A stretch of DNA of 62,453 bases, filler included, from Dimargaris cristalligena (lineage: Eukaryota), in the NCBI GenBank assembly GCA_003614675.1. It is 11 parts of 11 records of this genome, joined end to end, with 100 filler letters (N's around TTAATTAATTAA, not from the genome) between each part and the next. Parts side by side here need not be neighbours in the genome. Positions count along the whole stretch, not along the records: positions 5,725 to 11,331 come from ML003603.1; 10 more parts are not named here. The stretch is one strand, 5' to 3'. Made by a program: the position numbers and the translations under genes. A model generated the notes under the pieces. It searched no databases, was not told the DNA's origin, and saw only the letters and a program-made list of their open reading frames with translations. Positions 2,891 through 60,408 of this stretch are shown in pieces. The number at the start of each line of letters is the position of its first letter. Positions within the stretch are counted from its first letter, which is position 1.

Positions 2891-5100
2891 ATGGGCTTGC
2901 GAGCAACCTTGAGCATCCAAGACGTGGGATCACCCGCTGCCCAATTCGAGCGTTGGGGGATCGTGTACCGAACGGCCACGATCCCGGTTCAAGCACACAT
3001 CGTCAGGCAGGAACTCCGCCAGCATCGTCTTACTTTGGGTCGATTGACTCAAGTTGGGCTTACAGCGGGCTTGAAAATACTTGTAAGTACAGCCATTCTC
3101 AACCCTTCGAAAAAAGACCCCTTTCCCTAAGCGGGCAATACTACTGGAAAGCAACTCCGGAAACCCCTCCAAAAATTAATAGTGATAACGGCGCCCAAGT
3201 ATATATAATACTACCATACGACATGCATCTAACTACTTGCAATTAATGGTGGTTACTGTTTGATCTGGGTCTACATTAGCCAACTGCCGTCGAGCCTGCT
3301 GCCACATCGCATTTTAGCATCGGTCCTGGAACCCAACTCACCTTGGTCCTTACTGGTAATATTGAAAACAGCCCGCCGGATACATCCTCGAACGGCACCA
3401 ACCGCCCAGCCGGCCTTGGTGGCACCTCCCCCGATCTATTGTCCTCCGAACTACTACCAGGCTTAGAGCAGGCCCACCGGGATCTGCGTACCATTTTAAC
3501 ATTGCCGCTGCAATACCCTCAACATTTCGCCACTCTAAACGTCGAATGCCCCAAGGGGGTTTTATTACATGGGCCCCCTGGGGTAGGCAAAACCTGGCTT
3601 GTTAGTACGGTGGCTCGGGAGTGCCAGGCCCTCCTTCATAATATCAGTGGTCCGGAGATATTTGGGGCCTACCTAGGGGAAAGTGAAGCCAACCTGCGGG
3701 CCGTGTTCGCGGCTGCCGAGGCGCAGGCCCAATCCATGGACCGCCCCACCCTTTTATTTATAGACGAAATTGATGCATTAACCCCCCACCGAAATGACTC
3801 GGGCCAGCACGAGTCCCGCGTGATTGCCCAACTATTGACCCTGATGGATGGTTTGGTGACGCGCGGTCGGTTGGTGGTGATTGCCGCCACGAATAGGCCA
3901 AATGCCATCGATACCGCCCTCCGGCGACCCGGTAGGTTTGATCGAGAGGTGTCCATCGACGTACCCACGGAAACGGCCCGTGCAGCCATCCTTCGTTACC
4001 ACACACGGAAGCTGCCTCTCGCCCCCGATTTGGACCTGGATTATTTGGCGGCCATGACCACGGGCTATGTCGGGGCCGATTTAGCGGCCCTCTGCCGGGA
4101 GGCGGCCCGATCGGTCATTTACCGCCAATTCGAAGCCACCCGATCCACCCAACCCGAAGCAGACCTCCCCGATTCCGGGGCGCCCCTCCCGTTAACGCTA
4201 ACTGATTTTCAGAAAGCCTTAAAATCAGTGGGGCCTTCCCTGCAGCGGGGTCTCAATGTGGAAGTTCCTCCACTAACCTGGGCGGATATTGGGGGATTAG
4301 ACCAGGTGAAACGACAACTCCAACAGGCCGTGGAGTGGCCCCTGCTTTACCCGGATACTTTCCGCCGTCTGGGGTTGAGCACGCCGGCCGGCATTTTGCT
4401 CTACGGTCCTCCGGGTTGCAGCAAAACTACCCTGGTCAAAGTCATCGCGTCCCAGACCCGATCGAGTTTTTTCGCCATCAACGGGGCGGCGCTTTACTCC
4501 TCCTATGTCGGGGATTCCGAGCGCATCCTGCGGGACCTTTTCCGTCGGGCCCGGGCTAGTTCGCCGGCGGTTATTTTCTTGGACGAAATTGATACCATCG
4601 TCGGCAAACGTCATATGGAGGCTGGTGGCAGTGGAGGAGGAGGAGGGGCAGATAATGTTCAAGAGCGGATCTTAACGATGCTACTCACCGAAATGGACGG
4701 TGTGGAATCAAACCACGCTTCGGTCCTACTGGTAGGGGCCACCAATCGGCCCGATATGTTAGACGCCGCCCTTTTACGCCCGGGTCGGTTCGATAGGCTC
4801 ATTTATGTCCCACCCCCGGATCCACCCGCTCGCCGTCAGATTCTGGATATTGCCACGCGGAATACACCACTCCACAGTGGACTTGACCTCGGCACTATCG
4901 TCGAGCGTACCGAAGGATTTAGTGGGGCTGATTTAATGAATTTATGCCGCGAAGCCGCCCTTATAAGCCTCAGGCACCGGCACGAGCCGCTGCCAGTGGA
5001 AATGGTTCATTTTGAGGAAGCGCTAAGTCAAGTGCATCCTTCCATTCCTCCGTCGTCACTAAGGCAATATGCTGTTTTCCAGCAATCCCGTGTTCAGTAG
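2891..5100 (+). CDS. AFG2B: Double-AAA ATPase, AFG2B/SPATA5L1-like. Exons 2891-3082 and 3280-5100; the 5' exon is tentative
   Basis: Two Walker A/B sets (GPPGVGKT/FIDEID and GPPGCSKT/FLDEID) and SRH motifs (ALRRPGRFDR, ALLRPGRFDR). The D2 stretch YVGDSERILRDLFRRARASSPAVIFLDEID...VQERILTMLLTEMDGV fits SPATA5L1 better than SPATA5 or Cdc48. Phase-0 GTAAGT...TAG intron. Confidence 0.85.
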
Positions 5101-5865: not shown

Positions 5866-7674
5866 TATGGATTATGGACAGTATCACAGACCGTCGGTGT
5901 AAGTGTCGTCTTGAATTATAAGGTGTTGTTTTTTTCGTGAGGGTTCGCATGGGTAGGGTCACTAGCAAATTATGGTTCCCTTTACAATGAGGGAGAGTAA
6001 GGCAAATCCGCATTCGCCATTTTCCCCAATTGAAAACTCAAAGGGGTTGGGCACTATTAGTGTTGTCTAGGCTTAAAAGTGGGGCTGTTAACAGGCGTTT
6101 CAGGCCGACTCTTGTGGCAGCCATGCTGGGTTATTATTGGCGACAAAAGTTGACGTGAATTAATATTAATGGTGGTCGGTCCAGACCGTGCCCATTTCAT
6201 TACTGTGTAACGATTATACTTTGAGTAGCGAAATAGAAATGCCAGGCAATACCTGTCGCTAAAAAAGAACAGTTGAATCCAATTTTAAGATCTATTATAC
6301 CTTGGCTTCTACAGCCAGCTCCACACTCTGTACTCAAAAGACCTAGAGTACGGGCTCCTATAAACTAACGCCGTCTAGAAGCGTGTCCAGCAATACCGGT
6401 CGCCTTTGGTTGCAGCCTCGGGTTGAAAGGGGCACGCGATGCGAAATGGTTAGCCCGTTCTTTCAGACAGGGCTCTTTCGGTGTTATGAGCGTGCATTAG
6501 AAGTCGGTGGGGGCAACCGATGAAAAGACACCCATGCATTACAATCATGGGGTTGCACTCACTCATTGAAGTGTACTAACTGATGACCTGTTTCGACTTT
6601 GTGCCTTTTTTGTGGTGGTGTACGCTAGTTTACTTTATTCGTTCCTTTTATCCGCCTCCCCATCGTGGGAAGCGAGAGAGAATTAGTACTACGTGGAATA
6701 CAGTGACCAGCCGACCCAGTCATTGGCGATTTCAGAGGTGAATGCCGTCGAAGAGAATAGTGGCGGCCATTGCCCGAATTCTGGAAGTGTAGGGGTAGGT
6801 CGTGTGTGGGCCTTTAGGGTAAAATGAATACAAGCCGCAAGATTGATTAGCCCTAACATGAGCAAAGTAATTCGGATAGCGACAATATCCTCATTTCCGC
6901 ACTTGGTCCAGGCCGTCTAAGGATTTTGTCATACTCGCCCACTAAAAATTGCTAGTTGATATTTTCCTTTGGGAATAGGCCTTATAGAAAAAAATTACCA
7001 AAAAAGGCTAGCACCGGTTGCCTGTCGCTATCATTAAGTAGTTTTATATAATTACAACACATCAAAGGGAAGGGGCACAACCAAGGCATACATTCCCGCA
7101 TGGGACCAAGTGAATCAAGTGTACCTTAGTATACGCACTAATTCTATAAAATATGCTTACCCCTGTGGAGGGGCCTTTCCCATACCTCCAGTGTGCTCCC
7201 CTCTCACCAATCCCGTTGCTGGACTAACTACAGGCCAAGCCCCTTTCGTCAAATCCGTTTCATTTCTCGCCCTGCATTGTTATACACCAGAATTTCTGGT
7301 ATTTCACTCGCAGAACATGGGTTACGCAATGGCTACTTGCTATCCTTTCCCCCATTGCATTTGGAGATATTTTTCACACCTTTAAAGGCTGACCCAAGGA
7401 TAACATTGCTGAAGCGCGGTTGAAAAAAAAAACACTATTCGGCTGTAGGTGTTTATAAATGAAAGTGGCGGTACCTTCCTCATCCATTTTTTTGTATTGG
7501 TAGTTTAGTCTTGTCTGTTTACCTTGCAACATTTATCGTATATCATCTGCCGTCGGTATTGGGGGCAACATCCCTGTCCTATTTAACTATAGAGCTGTAT
7601 TCATTTCTATCTGCAGTGATACAGCGTCATCATTTTATATACTTTTACATTTTTAGGTTAGTTATACTTTTGTC

Positions 7675-9810
7675 ATGAAGGTTACTATGCCTCCCCTGAA
7701 GGCATTGGGCCTCTTAGTTCCGCTTATGTTGGCCACTTGCAGCCAAGGGCAACCTGCCAACTTTGACGGAGTCCAAAAATTTCTGCCCCTGGGAAAACCG
7801 AAGAACAGGGCCGAGTTGACAACAGAGGACCTGCCTCCTCAATCACCAAGCAAAAAGAATCGGTGGACCCAAGCGCTCAAACAACATCGAGTGGTGACAT
7901 GGCTCACCAAAAAGGGCCGGAAGTCAATGTCGCCGGCCAAACCACTGGAAATGCAGGTCTTGGGGTCACCCCCGTCGGGTGAAGGTTCGGAACAAGGGTC
8001 ACAGGGTTCCAAACAAGGCACCGATTGGAATACATTGCCGCCTGAATTGCAGAATATAATCATGCTCAATTTGGATTTTGTGGGTATGGCAGTCAGCGCC
8101 CATAAAATGCGAGTCGTTAATACTTATTATCGGCATTCATTGGATAGCTTGGAAGAGAAGGTAAGTAGTACATATTTACTGTTGCTATTGATCAATTTAT
8201 TCCCAGGTGCTTATGTTTTAAGTCTAGACATTGCATTTCTATGCATATATATATATATATGTATATATATATTGACCGAGTCGAGTAGGTCCTTAAGGAT
8301 GCAGGTGCGCCGTTCTAACCCTTTATATTATCTATATGGCTTTCAATTACCATTTCTGACGGAACATTTTGATGTTGTATTGGGGTCTTTCTATCTCTTT
8401 TGGTGCCGAAACTCGGTGTACTAATAACTAAATCAGACCACGACCACGATTAAGGAATTGAGCGAATGGTCAGGTTCGACCACGGGGCCTTCGGAAAAAG
8501 TACTCACCGATTATTGCCAAATATTCCACATGTCGCTGTATTCTATACTGGCTCACATTATCCGGGAAAAACTAGGGGACTACTTTACCCTATTCGATAA
8601 AACCTCAGTCGGTGACCCGTCGTGGGTAGTTTACGATCAGCTGAGCGGACCTCAACGCCTTCTGGCTTTCCCCCTAGTTAATGAACTACATGCGGAGACG
8701 GTGGAGACAGCGAATGCAGCGGAGACGTGGGGTCGCACAATAGCCAATTCATTGCACGGCGACCGCCCGGGCAAGTTTGGGGAGTGGGCCGTGGATATGG
8801 GGAGTGCGATACAATCTAGAATGGTTTCCACTGCTTACCTCGGCCTTCCCGATACCGTACTAAACCGAATTGGCTACTCAGCAATAATTAGCGCAATGTA
8901 TCTATCCATTAGCCGGGCATTCCGAGCCAAGGCCTATGATACTATTTCTGCTGCGCTAAGGGCGTTCGAAACAACTAGTCGGGTGCTGGCCAAAGTTAAT
9001 CCCGAAGTCCGGGGCCCCGCTATAAGCTGGGATTACATTAACTATAAACTGCATATGTTCCTGGCGTATTTGGCAGCCCAAACCAGTCGTTGGGACAAAC
9101 TCGAGGGCTATCTACTACGCCTAAAGCAAATAGACGTACCAGTACTCTACGAGCTAGAACCTTTCGAGTCTTTTCTGCTATCTTGTTTTTACGCCGAGGG
9201 CTGGATCAAAGCTGCTGCGACGCTGGAGAGATTATGGCTGATGGAATTCCCGGTGATAATTGAGGTCGATTACTACCGCAGTCGATTATATCCTACACAG
9301 TACCTCGACTTTACCGACCCGGGGTCTACCAGAGTACTGATTGACGCCTCCATGTGGTCTACGGCCATCCTGGGACGTTTGTTCACAGTTGAACGTCCGG
9401 CCGAATTACCCCAAGAAGATGCCTTCTTTGAGCAGTTTACCTCCGTCCATCCAGTTGCAGAGGCCCGTAACCTTCGGAACGAGGATCGTTCGACGCCCAA
9501 CTCGATCTCAGCCGAGATCGATGACCATGGTGCTGCGATACAAACGCCCAGGCAAGAGTCCCCAATTCTAAATCAACCCATCTCGGGAGAATTTAACCAC
9601 TCGCCCAGTCGGATGGATAATGCCTACAGTGAAGATTTTAATGACGTATCTACGGGTTCGGAATATGATGGGATTGGATCAGACCGTGATTCACAGACCG
9701 ATGAGTTCGGGTTCGGATGGGACAGGGCCGGTGACTCCCTTGGCGTTTTCGATGGCGTACCCACCATCCCCGCCAATTCCTCTGTAGGGTTAAGCGATGG
9801 CGCCGCTTAA
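7675..9810 (+). CDS. Secreted protein with F-box-like motif, ~619 aa. Exons 7675-8160 and 8437-9810
   Basis: Signal peptide MKVTMPPLKALGLLVPLMLATCSQG. Motif WNTLPPELQNIIMLNLD...MRVVNTYYRHSL. Phase-0 intron GTAAGT...CTAAT..CAG joins the two long ORFs. Acidic C-terminal tail. Confidence 0.8.
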
Positions 9811-11206
9811 CGCAGCCCCGTCACTTCAACTCTTAATGTACTTTGGTTAATACATTCCTCCTCAAAGACAGTACCCCCCCTCTGGCTTTGAATGAATCGG
9901 CCGTTGAATTCTAGCGGATTCCGCCTAGTTATTTACATTGAAGGCGAGTAATATATATGATAATACGGGCCCATCCACTGTAGTATTTATACTAATGGCT
10001 TGTCGGTGGGCAGTATAAACCAAAGCAGGCTTTGCATTATCCGAATCTCTTTTATTATTTTTTTACTCTGTAAATGACATAGTCAGGCTTAATAAATAGC
10101 CCTGCCAGCGTCTAGTCAATGGGCAACACTTCATTTACTACGAGAGGAACTTTATTGGATTATATATTGCATATCAGGTTGAAGTGTAATCCTCTGTATA
10201 AGTAGAATATGGGGCATGTCGTACGCTATTGCGGAATTTTGGTGATATTATTCTGTTATAACGTATAAGTTTTTGAAGATTATGTCGACTCCCGCTAGGC
10301 CCATTAGCATTACCATTAAAATTGGCCATTTTAAAGGTTAGACAATAGTACACATAAATTGTTCTTTCGTTCTACCCCACGCATGTAGATTTAAGTGCCA
10401 ATTGCAAAATGAAGAAGCGCTCCATTCCATAAATCATCTTCAGAAGTTACCCCAGGGGATTCATAATTTACGGACTAAATCAAGAAACGGTTACAGCTAA
10501 ATGGTCGAGTCTCGACCCCCTACTTTAATGATTAATTAAACAGGTAGCTGGCTTGTTGAAATGGGGGCAATACTGGTTAAAAATAAATCACAAACCTGAA
10601 TTGAAGTAATATAACGTCTAAAATATCGTACCTGCTGACCGTTCATCGGGGATTAGGGACTGGGGATTCGGGGGTTAGATTATTTTAAGAATGGCAGTAT
10701 AGAAAAATAAGCGATAGTGTGACAAGTGAAAGGGGATTTTTGAATATCGTTGAGTCACAATAGCCGCCTATTTTTCCGGGAGGCTGATCACGCTAAGTGA
10801 GTTTAGTTAATTAGCAATGCAGTTAAATGATATAGTTTTCAACACTGGTCTATGTACCACATATAATAATAGAGGGTTGAAAACTGCCCATCTTCAGCTC
10901 AACTAATAAGGAAGTATCAATTAGAGAGGGCTACTATTTTTAGCGTCCAATAAGGGGTAGGTCATATGGAGTACTGAGTAGGCCGCACGATTTAGGGAGC
11001 CCACAGTAAAATTTCTAGTAATAAGGGTGTGTTCGATTGTAACGGAAGTACTGTGGGGTAGTATTGTATGTCGATGGCGAGGCTTCACTTGGTAATCTCG
11101 AATGGGTACGAATAAATCACAGGCATGATCAACTATCTTTAGTGCTGACATAAATAAATCCATAAATAATTACTAGGCCAAGGTGTTGGTCATTTTAACC
11201 TATATA

Positions 11207-15167: not shown

Positions 15168-16260
15168 TCAGGCTGTCTCCGCCATAGTCCCGTAGGTCCT
15201 CCTCACTCGGGGAGGAATTACTGTGGGGGAGGCCTCTCCTGGTTGCAATACCATGTCCCACTGCGACTATCACGGGACTAGTCGAATACCAACTAGTACG
15301 ACAACATCCTTTCGAATATTAATTGGATTACCCATTACTCTCTTCCCCCATCACCTATGTTAACGGGCGGCGTCTCTATTAATAAATGCTCAGTAAAACT
15401 GGCGTAGACTTGCCTTACTAACATCAGCTCGGGTCTAATTACAACAATCTCGTCCCCATATTTTAATAAAGCCACTCAAGTATATCAGATTTTGAGTGAA
15501 ACATGAGTTGGTAAATAGACAGTATAATATTATTTCTAAGCATTGGCACCTAAATTACCCTATAGAATATTAGTACACCGGCGGATTAACCCATACCCAT
15601 ATCATATTTACTTTTCGTTTTTTTTAGATACCAGTGTGAATATTTATGCGAGATATTGGGCAGTACATAGAGTAGTAGAGTAGAGCGGAAAATGGAACAG
15701 TCGGTGAAAGGCTACAATGGAAAATCACCGTCTTTGAAGCTACAGCCCAATGTGCAATTTGGTTGAAGGAATACCCCTTGTCAAAGGAGTCTTTGTTCTC
15801 TTTCAGACATTGGGCAGGGAAGGGTAAGGCGGCCTGCAGGAGCTAGGAGGGTAGGTCCGAATATATATAAGACCTACGTTTCCCCCGACTCTATTCATTA
15901 CAACAACTGCCATCCACTTTTCCTTATTCCCACCGGCCATTCTCATACCACTTGTCCTATTTCCACTGCCCATTACATTCTTTGAAACCCAGTCCATCTA
16001 AGTAAGTGTATTGATATTATCCGGCCATTTAATTCCAACTCTGCGAATGAAAGACTAACTTTGGATGTCGCCGTTCCCTACTCTTACTTTCCTATTAACC
16101 AAGCCCTGCAAATAAATTTTTCGCCCAACCTTCCAACCTTTTGTACCATTTATTGATTAACTATGCTAGCCTCCCACCAAATCCCCGGACTCCGCGTGTC
16201 TCCACCTCCCCTGCATACTTTATCTCGGTAATCCACCCGACGCTCTCCAACTTGACCCCA

Positions 16261-16608
16261 ATGTATAACCAATGGAGCTATGCTATTCTGCTTGGACTCG
16301 TGATCCTGGTTTCCAGTATCCAACCCATTTCGACCAATCTACATGGGGATGGGCTTATCCCTACCCCCACCCTGCCCCATCACCCTCTTCTGACCAAACG
16401 GGACGACCCTAAAGTGGATTCAGCCAAAATGTCGAACTCCGACGCGGGAACCCCCGGTCCCGCAGGCTCGGTTAAGAATACAACTAATAAATCCAGCAAG
16501 ACCTTGGCGGGTAGAATATTTAGTAGCACCGGTGCGATCAAGTCCAGGGTAAAATCAACGGTGATTAATTTTAAGAACACATTGCCGGCAAAGACATATA
16601 AGCCTTAG
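16261..16608 (+). CDS. Small secreted protein, 115 aa: signal peptide, pro-region ending LTKR, Lys-rich basic mature part
   Basis: MYNQWSYAILLGLVILVSSIQP signal-like N-terminus. PLLTKR-DD Kex2-type site. Confidence 0.7.
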   Translation: MYNQWSYAILLGLVILVSSIQPISTNLHGDGLIPTPTLPHHPLLTKRDDPKVDSAKMSNSDAGTPGPAGSVKNTTNKSSKTLAGRIFSSTGAIKSRVKSTVINFKNTLPAKTYKP

Positions 16609-30371: not shown

Positions 30372-30573
30372 TATAAAACAAATCGATCTGGTCTCCCTTT
30401 CAAAATTATCCTTACCGTAGCTGTGTATGATTAATTGGTGGATATCACGTTTCTAGTCACCTAATCATCCATTAGTTGTCACCCTATCACTTATTTTTAT
30501 ATTCTTCATATTCGGGATACGCACTTTATTCAGTATTTAACCACCTCCACTGCACCGGACTCGGTCATTCACT

Positions 30574-33138
30574 ATGCGTGTCGTTTCATTGTGGGCTGTT
30601 CTAGCTACGGCCCTTCTAGGCAATTTGCTCCCAGTCATGGGCCAAATAGTGGGAGGTCCGAGCAGTGATGAATACACCACTGTTCCCCACAACTACATCG
30701 TCAAATTCGATGGTGAACCTGGTGATTCGACAGAGTCCAACGCATTCTTTGCCCAGATGGCCGCTGTTGGCATCCCCTTCACAATCGTGGCCAATTATTC
30801 GGTGTTGTTGAACGGGGTGAGTCTCGGTGTGGACGATCAGTATAACGATGCCATGGCTTCCTTCCTAGGGGTCCAAGCCGTGTGGCCCCTGGGTATTAGT
30901 AGCCTGGATGTGGCAACGGTCCAATCATCACAAAATTATCCTACTCAGCCGCCCAAACCCATGCTGGCCCACAACTACACCGGGGTCAACAATGTTCAGA
31001 ACGTGCTGAGCGCCACTGGCCGTAACGTCAAGATTGGCGTGCTCGATTCGGGTATCGATTATAATCACCCGGCATTCGGTAGCTGTTTCAAGACCCCCGG
31101 GTGCCGTGTCCAGTACGGGTATGATTTCGTGGGCGATTTTTTTATGGGTCAAAATCCGGTTCCGGATAATGACCCTTACGATCCCTGCCTAAACCACGGG
31201 ACCCACGTGGCCGGCATACTCGCGGGTAACCACGGCGATTTCAAGGGCGTGGCCCCCGATGCCACCATTGGTATGTATCGTGTGATGGGCTGCTACAATA
31301 TTGTCACTGAGGCCATCGTGATTCAGGCTCTCGAACAAGCGTATTTGGACGGAATGGATATTGTCACCATGTCCATTGGATTCCCCGGTTCTTGGGGAGC
31401 CTCTGCCTCGGGTGATGCTGCAGAGGCACTGATCAAGCTAGGTGTCTTCGTAGTATCGGCCGCCGGCAACCGGGGCCAGGATGGAATGTGGTCAATTGAC
31501 GGACCGTCGGTTCGGAATACACTTGTTTCAGTGGGCTCTGCTGAAATGCCCTTTCACTACAGCCAGTACCTCAACGTGACTTCCGATGAGCTCGTAGGGA
31601 TTCGCCGTACTATGTTTCAGAGTAGCGTAGGCTCTTTCGACATCAACCAGGCCCAGTTTGTCCGTGGTTTGGCCGCCGGAAGTACCACCGATGACTATGG
31701 GTGCAGCGCATTGCCCAGCTTTACGGGAAAGATGGTCCTTGTCCAAAACGGTGGTTGCAACATGTATACCAAGGGCCTGAATGTCCAAAATGCCGGGGGC
31801 ATTTCGATGGTTGTGTACCAGAGCGACGGTAGTGACCCTGTCACTGTTGCATACGAATACGAGCTGTACCTCCCTGCGGTGGCCATTTACAGGGCCGACG
31901 CAGTATACTTGATCAATAAGTTTAACTCCGTGGGCACCATCACCGTTTCAGTAGGACCGGATAATATTATCTTCGACTCACTGACTCCTCGTGCCCCTTC
32001 TGCCTTTTCATCCTGGGGACCCGGTCCCAAGTCCGAGGTGAAACCTGAACTTCTCGGTCCCGGCTCTAACATCTACGCCCCCTGGCCACTTACGCTAGGA
32101 TCATACGGCATCATATCCGGAACCTCGATGGCTACTCCTTACGTCGCTGGTGTGGCTGCTCTGTCCATCGAATACAGCAAGTCCAATGTCAACGGAGGAA
32201 CTCTGACGTCCATTGTTAACACCGCTCGTCCCCAAATTAACGCCGCCAGCCTTACCTACTACCCGGTGATTCAACAGGGGGCTGGCATTGTCAATGGTTA
32301 TGGCGCCACTATCTCCCCGATAATTTTTAATGTCACCACTATCAATGGCACCTTCCCTGATACTGATTGGCGTGATTTCGACAAATTTTTCAAATACAAT
32401 AACACGGGAAGTACTACCTGGGCCTACAAGCTACAATCAGCCAATGCCCAGAGTGTTTCTGGATTCGATAAAACTAAAACCCTGTCCATTCCTCCCATCA
32501 CCAATACGAAAGCACCCGATGTCTGGTTATCCACAACCTCACTGAATGCCGCCGCCGGCAAGACGGGCTATTTCGACATCAATCTTGACCACTCGTCCTA
32601 CGAACGTGCCGATTTGTTCATCTATAACGGCTACCTTATTATGTATCCCACCGCGGGGGTTTCGACGGGCTTCAACTACACTATCCCCTTCAGCGGTATA
32701 TCGTATTTTTCAACTCAGGTTCCTCTTCTTCCACCCCTAGCCACCGGTAACCCTTGCCTGATTCAGTACAAAGAGAACATCTGCCTTAACGAACTCCGTA
32801 CCTTTCAGATTCCCAATATCTACCCAGCCATGTTGTTCCGTATTCAACACCCCGTTTACCGTATCCGTATTTGCATCGCCCACGCCGCCACCCCCACTTT
32901 AATTCATGCTACAGTGACCGATACCCATATGTATAATATGGCGCGCAATATGCAGTCCGCTGGTACTATAAATTACACCTATCGTTGGACCGGTCTGGTA
33001 TTTTCTAATGGCTTTCCTACCCAACCGTTCTATCCTGTCAATGGGGACTACGTGTTCTTGGTGTATTTCTACACCTATCGTGCCAATATTGACCCCCTTG
33101 TGTGGAATTCAATTCCGATGACTATAAAGTCGCCCTGA
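30574..33138 (+). CDS. Secreted S8 subtilisin-like protease with pro-domain, PA insert and C-terminal beta-rich extension, 854 aa, intronless
   Basis: Signal peptide. Triad motifs VLDSGIDYNHP, HGTHVAGI and SGTSMATPYVAG. Oxyanion AAGN. PA-like GKMVLVQNGGC...NVQNAGG. Confidence 0.95.
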   Translation: MRVVSLWAVLATALLGNLLPVMGQIVGGPSSDEYTTVPHNYIVKFDGEPGDSTESNAFFAQMAAVGIPFTIVANYSVLLNGVSLGVDDQYNDAMASFLGVQAVWPLGISSLDVATVQSSQNYPTQPPKPMLAHNYTGVNNVQNVLSATGRNVKIGVLDSGIDYNHPAFGSCFKTPGCRVQYGYDFVGDFFMGQNPVPDNDPYDPCLNHGTHVAGILAGNHGDFKGVAPDATIGMYRVMGCYNIVTEAIVIQALEQAYLDGMDIVTMSIGFPGSWGASASGDAAEALIKLGVFVVSAAGNRGQDGMWSIDGPSVRNTLVSVGSAEMPFHYSQYLNVTSDELVGIRRTMFQSSVGSFDINQAQFVRGLAAGSTTDDYGCSALPSFTGKMVLVQNGGCNMYTKGLNVQNAGGISMVVYQSDGSDPVTVAYEYELYLPAVAIYRADAVYLINKFNSVGTITVSVGPDNIIFDSLTPRAPSAFSSWGPGPKSEVKPELLGPGSNIYAPWPLTLGSYGIISGTSMATPYVAGVAALSIEYSKSNVNGGTLTSIVNTARPQINAASLTYYPVIQQGAGIVNGYGATISPIIFNVTTINGTFPDTDWRDFDKFFKYNNTGSTTWAYKLQSANAQSVSGFDKTKTLSIPPITNTKAPDVWLSTTSLNAAAGKTGYFDINLDHSSYERADLFIYNGYLIMYPTAGVSTGFNYTIPFSGISYFSTQVPLLPPLATGNPCLIQYKENICLNELRTFQIPNIYPAMLFRIQHPVYRIRICIAHAATPTLIHATVTDTHMYNMARNMQSAGTINYTYRWTGLVFSNGFPTQPFYPVNGDYVFLVYFYTYRANIDPLVWNSIPMTIKSP

Positions 33139-59614: not shown

Positions 59615-60172
59615 TTGGGAGCCGAGTCTGGTGTTAAAGTCCTAAACAGTCTGGAGCTTCTTGCTGTTGACGGTATCGCGGAAGCGGCTGGAAGAGGGCT
59701 CGGTGTCTTCGTTGGAGCCGAACTTAGTATTGAAGCCCTGAACAGTCTGGAACTTCTTGCTGTTGACGGTATCGCGGAAGTGGCTGGAAGAAGGCTCAGT
59801 GTTTTCGTCGAAGCCGAATTTAGTATTGAAGTCCTGAACAGTCTGGAACTTCTTGCTGTTGACGGTATCACGGAAGCGGCTGGAAGAAGGCTCGGTGTCT
59901 TCGTTGGAGCCGAACTTAGTATTGAAGCCCTGAATGGCCTGGAACTTCGGGCTACTGACGGTATCGCGGAAGCGACTGGAAGAAGGCTCGGTGTTTTCGT
60001 CGGAGCCGAATTTAGTATTGAAGTCCTGAACAGTCTGGAACTTCTTGCTGTTGACGGTATCACGGAAGCGGCTGGAAGAAGGCTCGGTGTCTTCGTTGGA
60101 GCCGAACTTAGTATTGAAGCCCTGAATGGCCTGGAACTTCGGGCTACTGACGGTATCGCGGAAGCGACTGGA
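59615..60172. repeat. 96-bp coding tandem repeat, ~5.8 copies, with a 192-bp A-B higher-order unit
   Basis: GACGGTATC[AG]CGGAAG recurs every 96 nt. Confidence 0.95.
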
Positions 60173-60262
60173 ATAAATTTCGTCACTATCCTCGAAAGGA
60201 GCCGCCTGGGTAAAAGCAAGAATAGCAGCGAAAGTCACGGAGGTTGTAGCCGAAAACTTCAT
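59642..60262 (-). CDS. Secreted tandem-repeat peptide precursor, 206 aa, six 32-aa units
   Basis: Signal MKFSATTSVTFAAILAFTQA, then repeats of SSSRFRDTVNSKKFQTVQDFNTKFGSDENTEP. TATATAAA about 150 bp upstream. Confidence 0.85.
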   Translation of the reverse strand: MKFSATTSVTFAAILAFTQAAPFEDSDEIYSSRFRDTVSSPKFQAIQGFNTKFGSNEDTEPSSSRFRDTVNSKKFQTVQDFNTKFGSDENTEPSSSRFRDTVSSPKFQAIQGFNTKFGSNEDTEPSSSRFRDTVNSKKFQTVQDFNTKFGFDENTEPSSSHFRDTVNSKKFQTVQGFNTKFGSNEDTEPSSSRFRDTVNSKKLQTV

Positions 60263-60408
60263 AATGAAAAGTATTGCGTAGTTAAACTGGGGGTTGTGGG
60301 GAGTATATGGTGAAGGGGAATGCCTGGGCGAATAAGTAGTCAAAGAGCAATGGCGTTGGGTAGATATGGGTGAGGTGGGTTGTTGAACAGAGAGCGACTA
60401 AGCGCTCT

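Follow-up and report, generated by a model that had tools for sequence, protein, structure and literature searches.

Within the analysed window, a stretch of 62,453 nucleotides from Dimargaris cristalligena, lies a two-exon gene on contig G000:C1396. The gene is read from the + strand, with an ATG at 7675, exons at 7675-8160 (162 aa) and 8437-9810 (457 aa) and a stop codon at 9808-9810, and yields a product of 619 aa. Its phase-0 intron (8161..8436, + strand) opens with a GTAAGT donor at 8161 and closes with a CAG acceptor ending at 8436, before which a CTAAT/CTAA branch-like stretch is found; the donor lies 42 codons past the L of the LPxE motif described below, the range in the gene family being 39-44. 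The splice is based on gene models, namely the deposited proteins P0001 and P0002, which share this junction and are both models of one cluster. P0002 (615 aa) corresponds letter for letter to both exons from the second Met (7687), and exon 2 is identical to a database protein named from D. cristalligena. P0001 (490 aa) is spliced as P0002, but starts at a Met within the F-box and is thus devoid of the signal peptide. In UniRef, P0002 bears the automatic name 'F-box domain-containing protein', so that the domain is already catalogued. Three DNA runs over 7400-10000 revealed zero differing letters, two of them covering the region unbroken, though they possibly represent the source DNA and are not independent. 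The gene is real, as the two-exon model equals the deposited D. cristalligena model, and the spliced protein of about 619 aa proposed in the preliminary description agrees with P0002.

Inside the intron, 16 nt at 8289-8304 (+) are flanked by a branch-like ATTGAC, a TAG and a weak GTGCGC and form a possible microexon, which is probably unused since it would shift the frame. The window itself was put together end to end from about 11 contigs, each about 5.6 kb long, with runs of N in between, and therefore does not place genes on either side of such a run as true neighbours. Other signal-peptide-like ORFs were seen at 1724-2113, 16099-16605, 30541-33135, 37820-38224, and 59645-60397, labelled by eye as small proteins of secreted type, a protein with repeats, and a probable propeptide-bearing protease. 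By eye as well, the region 3280-5100 (+) resembles a Cdc48/AFG2-like AAA+ ATPase with two Walker A motifs.

A TATA-like box (7454..7460, + strand), a generic promoter feature, precedes the first ATG by about 220 nt. Across 44 family starts, TATA words are over-represented in the upstream sequence, and the promoters of these 44 display no family-specific motif apart from TATA and CT-rich words. The protein begins with a signal-peptide-like N-terminus (aa 1-25, 7675..7749, +) with a likely cleavage after S-Q-G and a hydrophobic core at aa 10-20 (Kyte-Doolittle 11-residue mean 2.43). This call relies on our own hydropathy heuristic, which is crude and positive in 44 of 185 background ORFs (24%) too. 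The alternative start used by P0002, the ATG at 7687, retains the signal-peptide-like stretch, and a 19-residue transmembrane window, looked for by hydropathy in P0002, was not found. A basic low-complexity linker follows (7750..8025, +), having 15 K/R versus 7 D/E and including PSKKNR (7846-7863) and TKKGRK (7906-7923), which are possible nuclear localisation signals. It leads into the divergent F-box-like motif (8026..8160, +), which starts as WNTLPPEL from 8026, with LPPE at 8035, and ends at the conserved family phase-0 intron. Exon 2 encodes a helical body domain occurring family-wide (8437..9402, +) and an acidic, probably disordered tail with the stop codon (9403..9810, +; 26 D/E versus 7 K/R in 135 aa). 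The preliminary description placed the hydrophobic start, the basic patches, the motif, and the acidic tail correctly.

How far the motif of this copy can be called an F-box depends on the model with which it is compared. In searches with PF00646 and PF12937, neither exon 1 nor the isolated motif nor P0002 gave an F-box family at E<=10, and the gene is absent from the genome matches of both models (65 for PF12937, 62 for PF00646). The preliminary description had proposed this very check and held that a missing F-box HMM match would speak against its claim, which the result for this protein partly does. As the sole Pfam trace, we obtained a sub-threshold likeness to poxvirus PRANC (PF09372; residues 115-134, E 0.057 for exon 1), which only reflects the LPxE helix; in viral ankyrin proteins, PRANC forms the C-terminal part. 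With a profile built from 51 other members of the family, in turn, exon 1 scored 14.1 bits, the best of 2000 shuffles reaching 8.3, and ranked first among 1617 six-frame pieces of the window, the match spanning just the first 17 positions. The first-helix consensus L-P-x-E-[LI]-x-x-x-I-x-x-x-L is present in full. With a leave-one-out F-box score of 17.3 bits (family median 31.1), the copy is the 4th lowest of 54, and its second motif half, scored by itself, reaches 0.66, a value exceeded by many shuffles (10th best of 100 = 6.37). The conserved Val and aromatic residue of the second-half consensus D-L...V-[CSN]-x-x-W are recovered by MAFFT via a 4-residue insertion only, and an ungapped BLAST alignment to the closest paralog puts Lys at the conserved Val/Leu position. 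A single-sequence structure model of P0002 reached a pLDDT of 36.6, too low to be of use for judging the fold, and a predicted complex of the F-box with a stand-in Skp1 (P0043, Gamsiella) scored 0.22 versus a mark of 0.34, a value from a run with no alignments and no folded controls that speaks neither for nor against binding. Judged by the family profile, the motif is more than a chance resemblance and is an F-box of a divergent kind. Over its first helix, the F-box-like motif noted at first stands above chance by that profile; its second half fits the consensus in the gapped alignment only, and the Pfam F-box models missed the motif altogether. That this copy still binds Skp1 appears evenly balanced between yes and no.

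For the family as a whole, the assignment is clearer. Pfam matches were obtained for 52 of the 54 aligned family pieces, many of them below cut-off, and a search of the PDB with the family profile retrieved 39 sequences at E<=1; 36 of these, including FBXO31, Skp2, Dia2, Fbw7, Cdc4, and Legionella AnkB (5k35), are matched in their F-box region (best E 2e-6), and the other three are FliG (E 0.37-0.77). Because the family profile retrieves solved F-box proteins, the family motif can be regarded as an F-box. Within LPxE, P is kept in 52 and E likewise in 52 of the 53 other members, the second-half Val and aromatic positions are retained in most, and the F-box identity to this gene ranges across members from 12 to 33%. 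In Aspergillus, the proline matters for F-box-Skp1 binding, as described in the available part of PMC5029927. Eight independent paralog pairs revealed a dN/dS of 0.23 at 12 core F-box columns versus 0.49 elsewhere, a contrast that is partly circular as the core columns were picked from the same alignment; over the whole F-box piece the eight pairs gave 0.43, and over the bodies seven pairs gave 0.22-0.58. These rates suggest that selection has constrained the core positions of the F-box. In the model of family member P0228, the F-box part is helical with a pLDDT of about 45-50.

Genome-wide, the 65 PF12937 and 62 PF00646 matches fall on 80 distinct places, all of which were inspected; one PF12937 match, which represents the latter part of a split domain, was not counted separately. 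For the family alignment A1, 82 places were inspected, 19 canonical-looking and 7 junk ones being removed by hand and 2 having no anchor. The top-scoring matches are ordinary long-ORF F-box genes, and about 19 canonical F-box genes, sorted by hand, are mostly without the family signal and intron. Most weaker matches, in contrast, are short first exons in which the N-terminus is hydrophobic and LPxE is followed after 39-44 codons by a phase-0 donor, a layout into which this gene falls with its donor at +42. Both the family intron and a signal-like start were found in 39 of the 80 matches, which provides the genome-wide count of signal peptide plus F-box that the preliminary description had asked for; of the others, 10 show just the intron, 4 just the signal, and 27 lack both (Fisher p 3.2e-9 for the association), the background rates being 2.9% for the donor and 44/185 ORFs for the signal heuristic. 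Body similarity alone led to a further 42 loci with no Pfam F-box match, 20 of which carry an upstream family F-box of at least 10 bits, with a signal-like start in 19/20 and the donor in 15/20; the 22 body loci without F-box include some clipped at contig or region ends and 4 that score <=5 bits on the body profile. Taken together, the body and F-box sets comprise at least 98 loci, about 76 of them F-box-bearing, a number composed of 56 earlier members and the 20 body-found loci that is a lower bound and includes some broken copies. Several copies contain in-frame stops. An A at -3 of the signal-peptide Met was observed in 31 of 44 members, and the F-box begins between 24 and 178 aa from the start. 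Given this recurrent architecture, the genes very probably represent a large, lineage-expanded family of truly secreted F-box proteins, and a predicted export signal combined with a ubiquitin-ligase docking motif is the layout of the whole gene family in D. cristalligena.

Regarding the range of the family beyond this genome, word-index protein searches returned only D. cristalligena matches (1, and 2 among 8000 scored candidates), by a method that is insensitive and missed most known members. The best 150 of 3045 representative matches are mostly multi-F-box proteins; 15 of these 150 pass the signal heuristic or the body profile, and among the named passers only 2 are D. cristalligena family members. 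A metagenome scan with P0228 gave no match. P0267 of Rozella allomycis and P0135 of Candidatus Babeliales, both intracellular parasites, show a hydrophobic N-terminus followed by an F-box and are possibly parallel cases.

Evidence from outside the F-box that the gene belongs to the family comes from the body, as a leave-out profile of 43 other bodies matches exon 2 (8437..9402) with 18.9 bits and E 5.4e-5. The family consensus of the second exon reads W-x-Y-x5-L-x8-F-P-x-L and later C-A-x3-G-x3-A, and this gene displays a W-x-x-Y/D-x-x-L...F-P-L motif at 8623-8676. Five single-protein queries revealed 74 body loci in the genome, while a downstream ORF of at least 250 aa is present in only 46 of 54 members. 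None of the LRR or ankyrin Pfam families was detected at E<=0.05 in any of 45 bodies, nor did the body yield a convincing Pfam family. For P0228, AlphaFold2 with 51 sequences predicts a confident, mostly helical body with a small C-terminal sheet (pLDDT mostly 70-97 for the block of residues 111-440). We regard the body as the putative substrate-binding part; with no Pfam family, it may represent an uncharacterised substrate-binding module.

Two paralogs align over both exons of this gene, and one of them has a Pfam F-box match (E 0.0036). The closest paralogs are a tandem pair on contig C803 (L004, L005) with clearer F-boxes, both of which also share the signal-like type of N-terminus and the basic patches. 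Also among the closest paralogs are an F-box-less, long-tailed copy on C305 (L006), which is related to the body of this gene, and a copy on C691 (L007) that contains in-frame stops. A second family member lies within the window on another contig (47297..48699, +) and lacks the F-box, being composed of a signal-like start, a short pro-piece with RR|G at its end, an intron, and the same type of body, the body profile giving 31.7 bits on 47698-48699. Together with L091, L092, L094, and L095 it makes up an F-box-less subfamily in which a signal-like peptide, a short RR|G pro-piece, an intron, and the same body succeed each other; we take RR|G to be a possible Kex2 site. At least six relatives retain signal and body without F-box, so the body can exist without it.

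The genome holds two Skp1 genes, L087 (G000:C77) and L088 (G000:C314). The C77 Skp1 (P0003) and two other Dimargaritales Skp1 proteins show changes at otherwise nearly invariant positions of the C-terminal helices, namely DQ in 'VDQEML' and D and V in 'LDVGC', and the C314 copy is interrupted by an intron and carries a long insertion.

Skp1 and Cul1 reside in the cytosol and the nucleus, so that an F-box behind a signal peptide would be without a partner in the parasite's secretory pathway. The near-invariance of P and E despite only 12-33% identity to this copy would find its simplest account in host Skp1 as the partner. Dimargaritales parasitise fungi via an appressorium and a biotrophic haustorium, according to the accessible portion of PMC9866270. 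We lean slightly towards the view that the gene is a divergent member of a secreted F-box family whose products are haustorium-delivered effectors engaging the host SCF ligase, with the motif worn in this copy. The family proteins would enter the parasite's secretory pathway and pass via the haustorium into the host hypha, where the F-box would dock on host Skp1-Cul1; the fast-diverging body would then determine which host proteins are ubiquitinated and destroyed, or the family proteins would sequester host Skp1. In this subfamily, the basic linker may direct the protein to the host nucleus. That the family engages host SCF seems rather likely. The idea of an effector hijacking host SCF, advanced in the preliminary description for this single gene, has gained from the haustorial mycoparasitic lifestyle and from a whole family with signal and F-box, but has lost for this copy, whose motif is weak and without Pfam match. 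The interest of the locus rests on the family more than on this copy.

It is unlikely that, in a family of SCF-engaging effectors, this copy owns a decaying F-box and, being secreted, acts through its body alone. Its motif belongs to the weakest tier with no signal in the second half, F-box-less relatives are known, including the C305 gene that is kin to its body, and an SSGP-71 member without F-box is mentioned in the part of PMC4617103 open to us. However, W-x-x-L-P-x-E-L-x-x-x-I-M-x-x-L is fully intact, the exon has kept its length up to the intron, and M, V, N, and Y come to lie on consensus positions once gaps are allowed in the alignment, all of which argue against decay.

It is improbable that the proteins are not exported at all, with a later Met start or an unused hydrophobic stretch, and serve as expanded SCF adaptors of the parasite itself, for example in non-self recognition. 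Deposited P0001 without signal peptide, the presence of two Skp1 genes, and the large cytosolic F-box expansions of plants and nematodes would be in line with such a role. Yet the P0001 start would halve the F-box, the signal-like start is kept, in a good start context, across members of 12-33% F-box identity, and most of the canonical F-box genes with long ORFs in this genome are without such N-termini. In oomycete effectors, header motifs serve as export or host-entry tags, and a helix derived from an F-box might have been repurposed likewise, with no more role in ubiquitination. The helix does follow the signal peptide within a first exon that is portable, and conservation is far stronger in the first half of the motif than in the second, but a motif-to-start distance varying from 24 to 178 aa, the retention of the second-half Val and aromatic residue in most members, and one type of body downstream instead of many unrelated cargoes make such a tag very improbable. 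Least probable is a family that is secreted but stays extracellular or in the interface matrix with the F-box as a retained structural relic, since the near-invariant P/E and the lower core dN/dS would hardly be expected in the absence of a Skp1-like partner, even if a dibasic RR site, by the Kex2 rule typical of processed secreted proteins, is present in the F-box-less subfamily.

Extended to the whole family, the preferred reading of host SCF engagement would imply about 75-100 secreted ubiquitin-ligase adaptors, each a portable signal/F-box exon joined to an unclassified helical body, that are injected via the haustorium and reprogram proteolysis of the host fungus, while changes in the F-box-binding helices of the parasite's main Skp1 may keep its own SCF apart from these adaptors; we hold this tentatively, at a little short of an even chance. 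If true, this would be a large effector family of a fungus-on-fungus biotroph, convergent with the F-box effectors of Hessian fly and bacteria, and SCF hijack by secreted F-box proteins would have arisen independently in fungi. The molecular control of a living fungal host by biotrophic mycoparasites is almost unstudied, and the family supplies specific candidates, whose predicted partner, Skp1, is open to assay in yeast, as well as a possible handle on protein transfer between fungi.

In the open-licence literature searched, no description of a Dimargaris F-box family was found. The accessible main texts of the Dimargaris genome papers (PMC9866270, PMC6784888) cover proteases and secondary metabolites and do not contain the term 'F-box', one supplement of PMC9866270 has no F-box terms, and the available parts of PMC8146833 and PMC4928854 add nothing on secreted F-box proteins. 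The statement of the preliminary description that no characterised fungal example is known holds for the open-licence literature searched, with the reservation that an uncharacterised candidate had already been listed for Rhizophagus clarus: NLS_30765 is predicted to be secreted, combines PF12937 with an NLS, and was proposed to act through SCF (PMC4746824, available part). It is, however, a single uncharacterised candidate of a plant symbiont, compared with about 76 F-box-bearing members in Dimargaris.

Canonical fungal F-box proteins such as Cdc4 and Dia2, found by the family profile, have the LPxE...L motif in common with the Dimargaris family, but are intracellular and without signal peptide. 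Closer in their proposed mode of action are F-box proteins delivered into another cell, such as Agrobacterium VirF, which binds host Skp1, and Legionella AnkB, also a host Skp1 binder, the structure of which (PDB 5k35) is matched by the family profile. The same holds for Ralstonia GALA/RipG, described in the accessible part of PMC4617103 as binding host Skp1 after delivery. All three are bacterial, though, being delivered by type III or IV secretion with no eukaryotic signal peptide, and have LRR or ankyrin bodies.

By analogy, the closest precedent is SSGP-71 of the Hessian fly Mayetiola destructor, which the preliminary description did not name. In the available parts of PMC4617103 and PMC7330099, SSGP-71 is a large F-box-LRR family that binds wheat Skp proteins, requires the F-box for its activity, and is thought to hijack the host proteasome. 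The C-terminal leucine-rich repeats typical of SSGP-71 were not found in the Dimargaris bodies, which places the Dimargaris family outside SSGP-71. One family is delivered with insect saliva into wheat, whereas the other would act from fungus to fungus through a body without Pfam LRR or ankyrin; no common origin is implied, and the Dimargaris side is known from sequence alone. What the two have in common, going by the accessible description of SSGP-71, is a large multi-copy eukaryotic family with a signal ahead of an N-terminal F-box (by the hydropathy heuristic in Dimargaris), a variable C-terminal part, and some members that lack the F-box.
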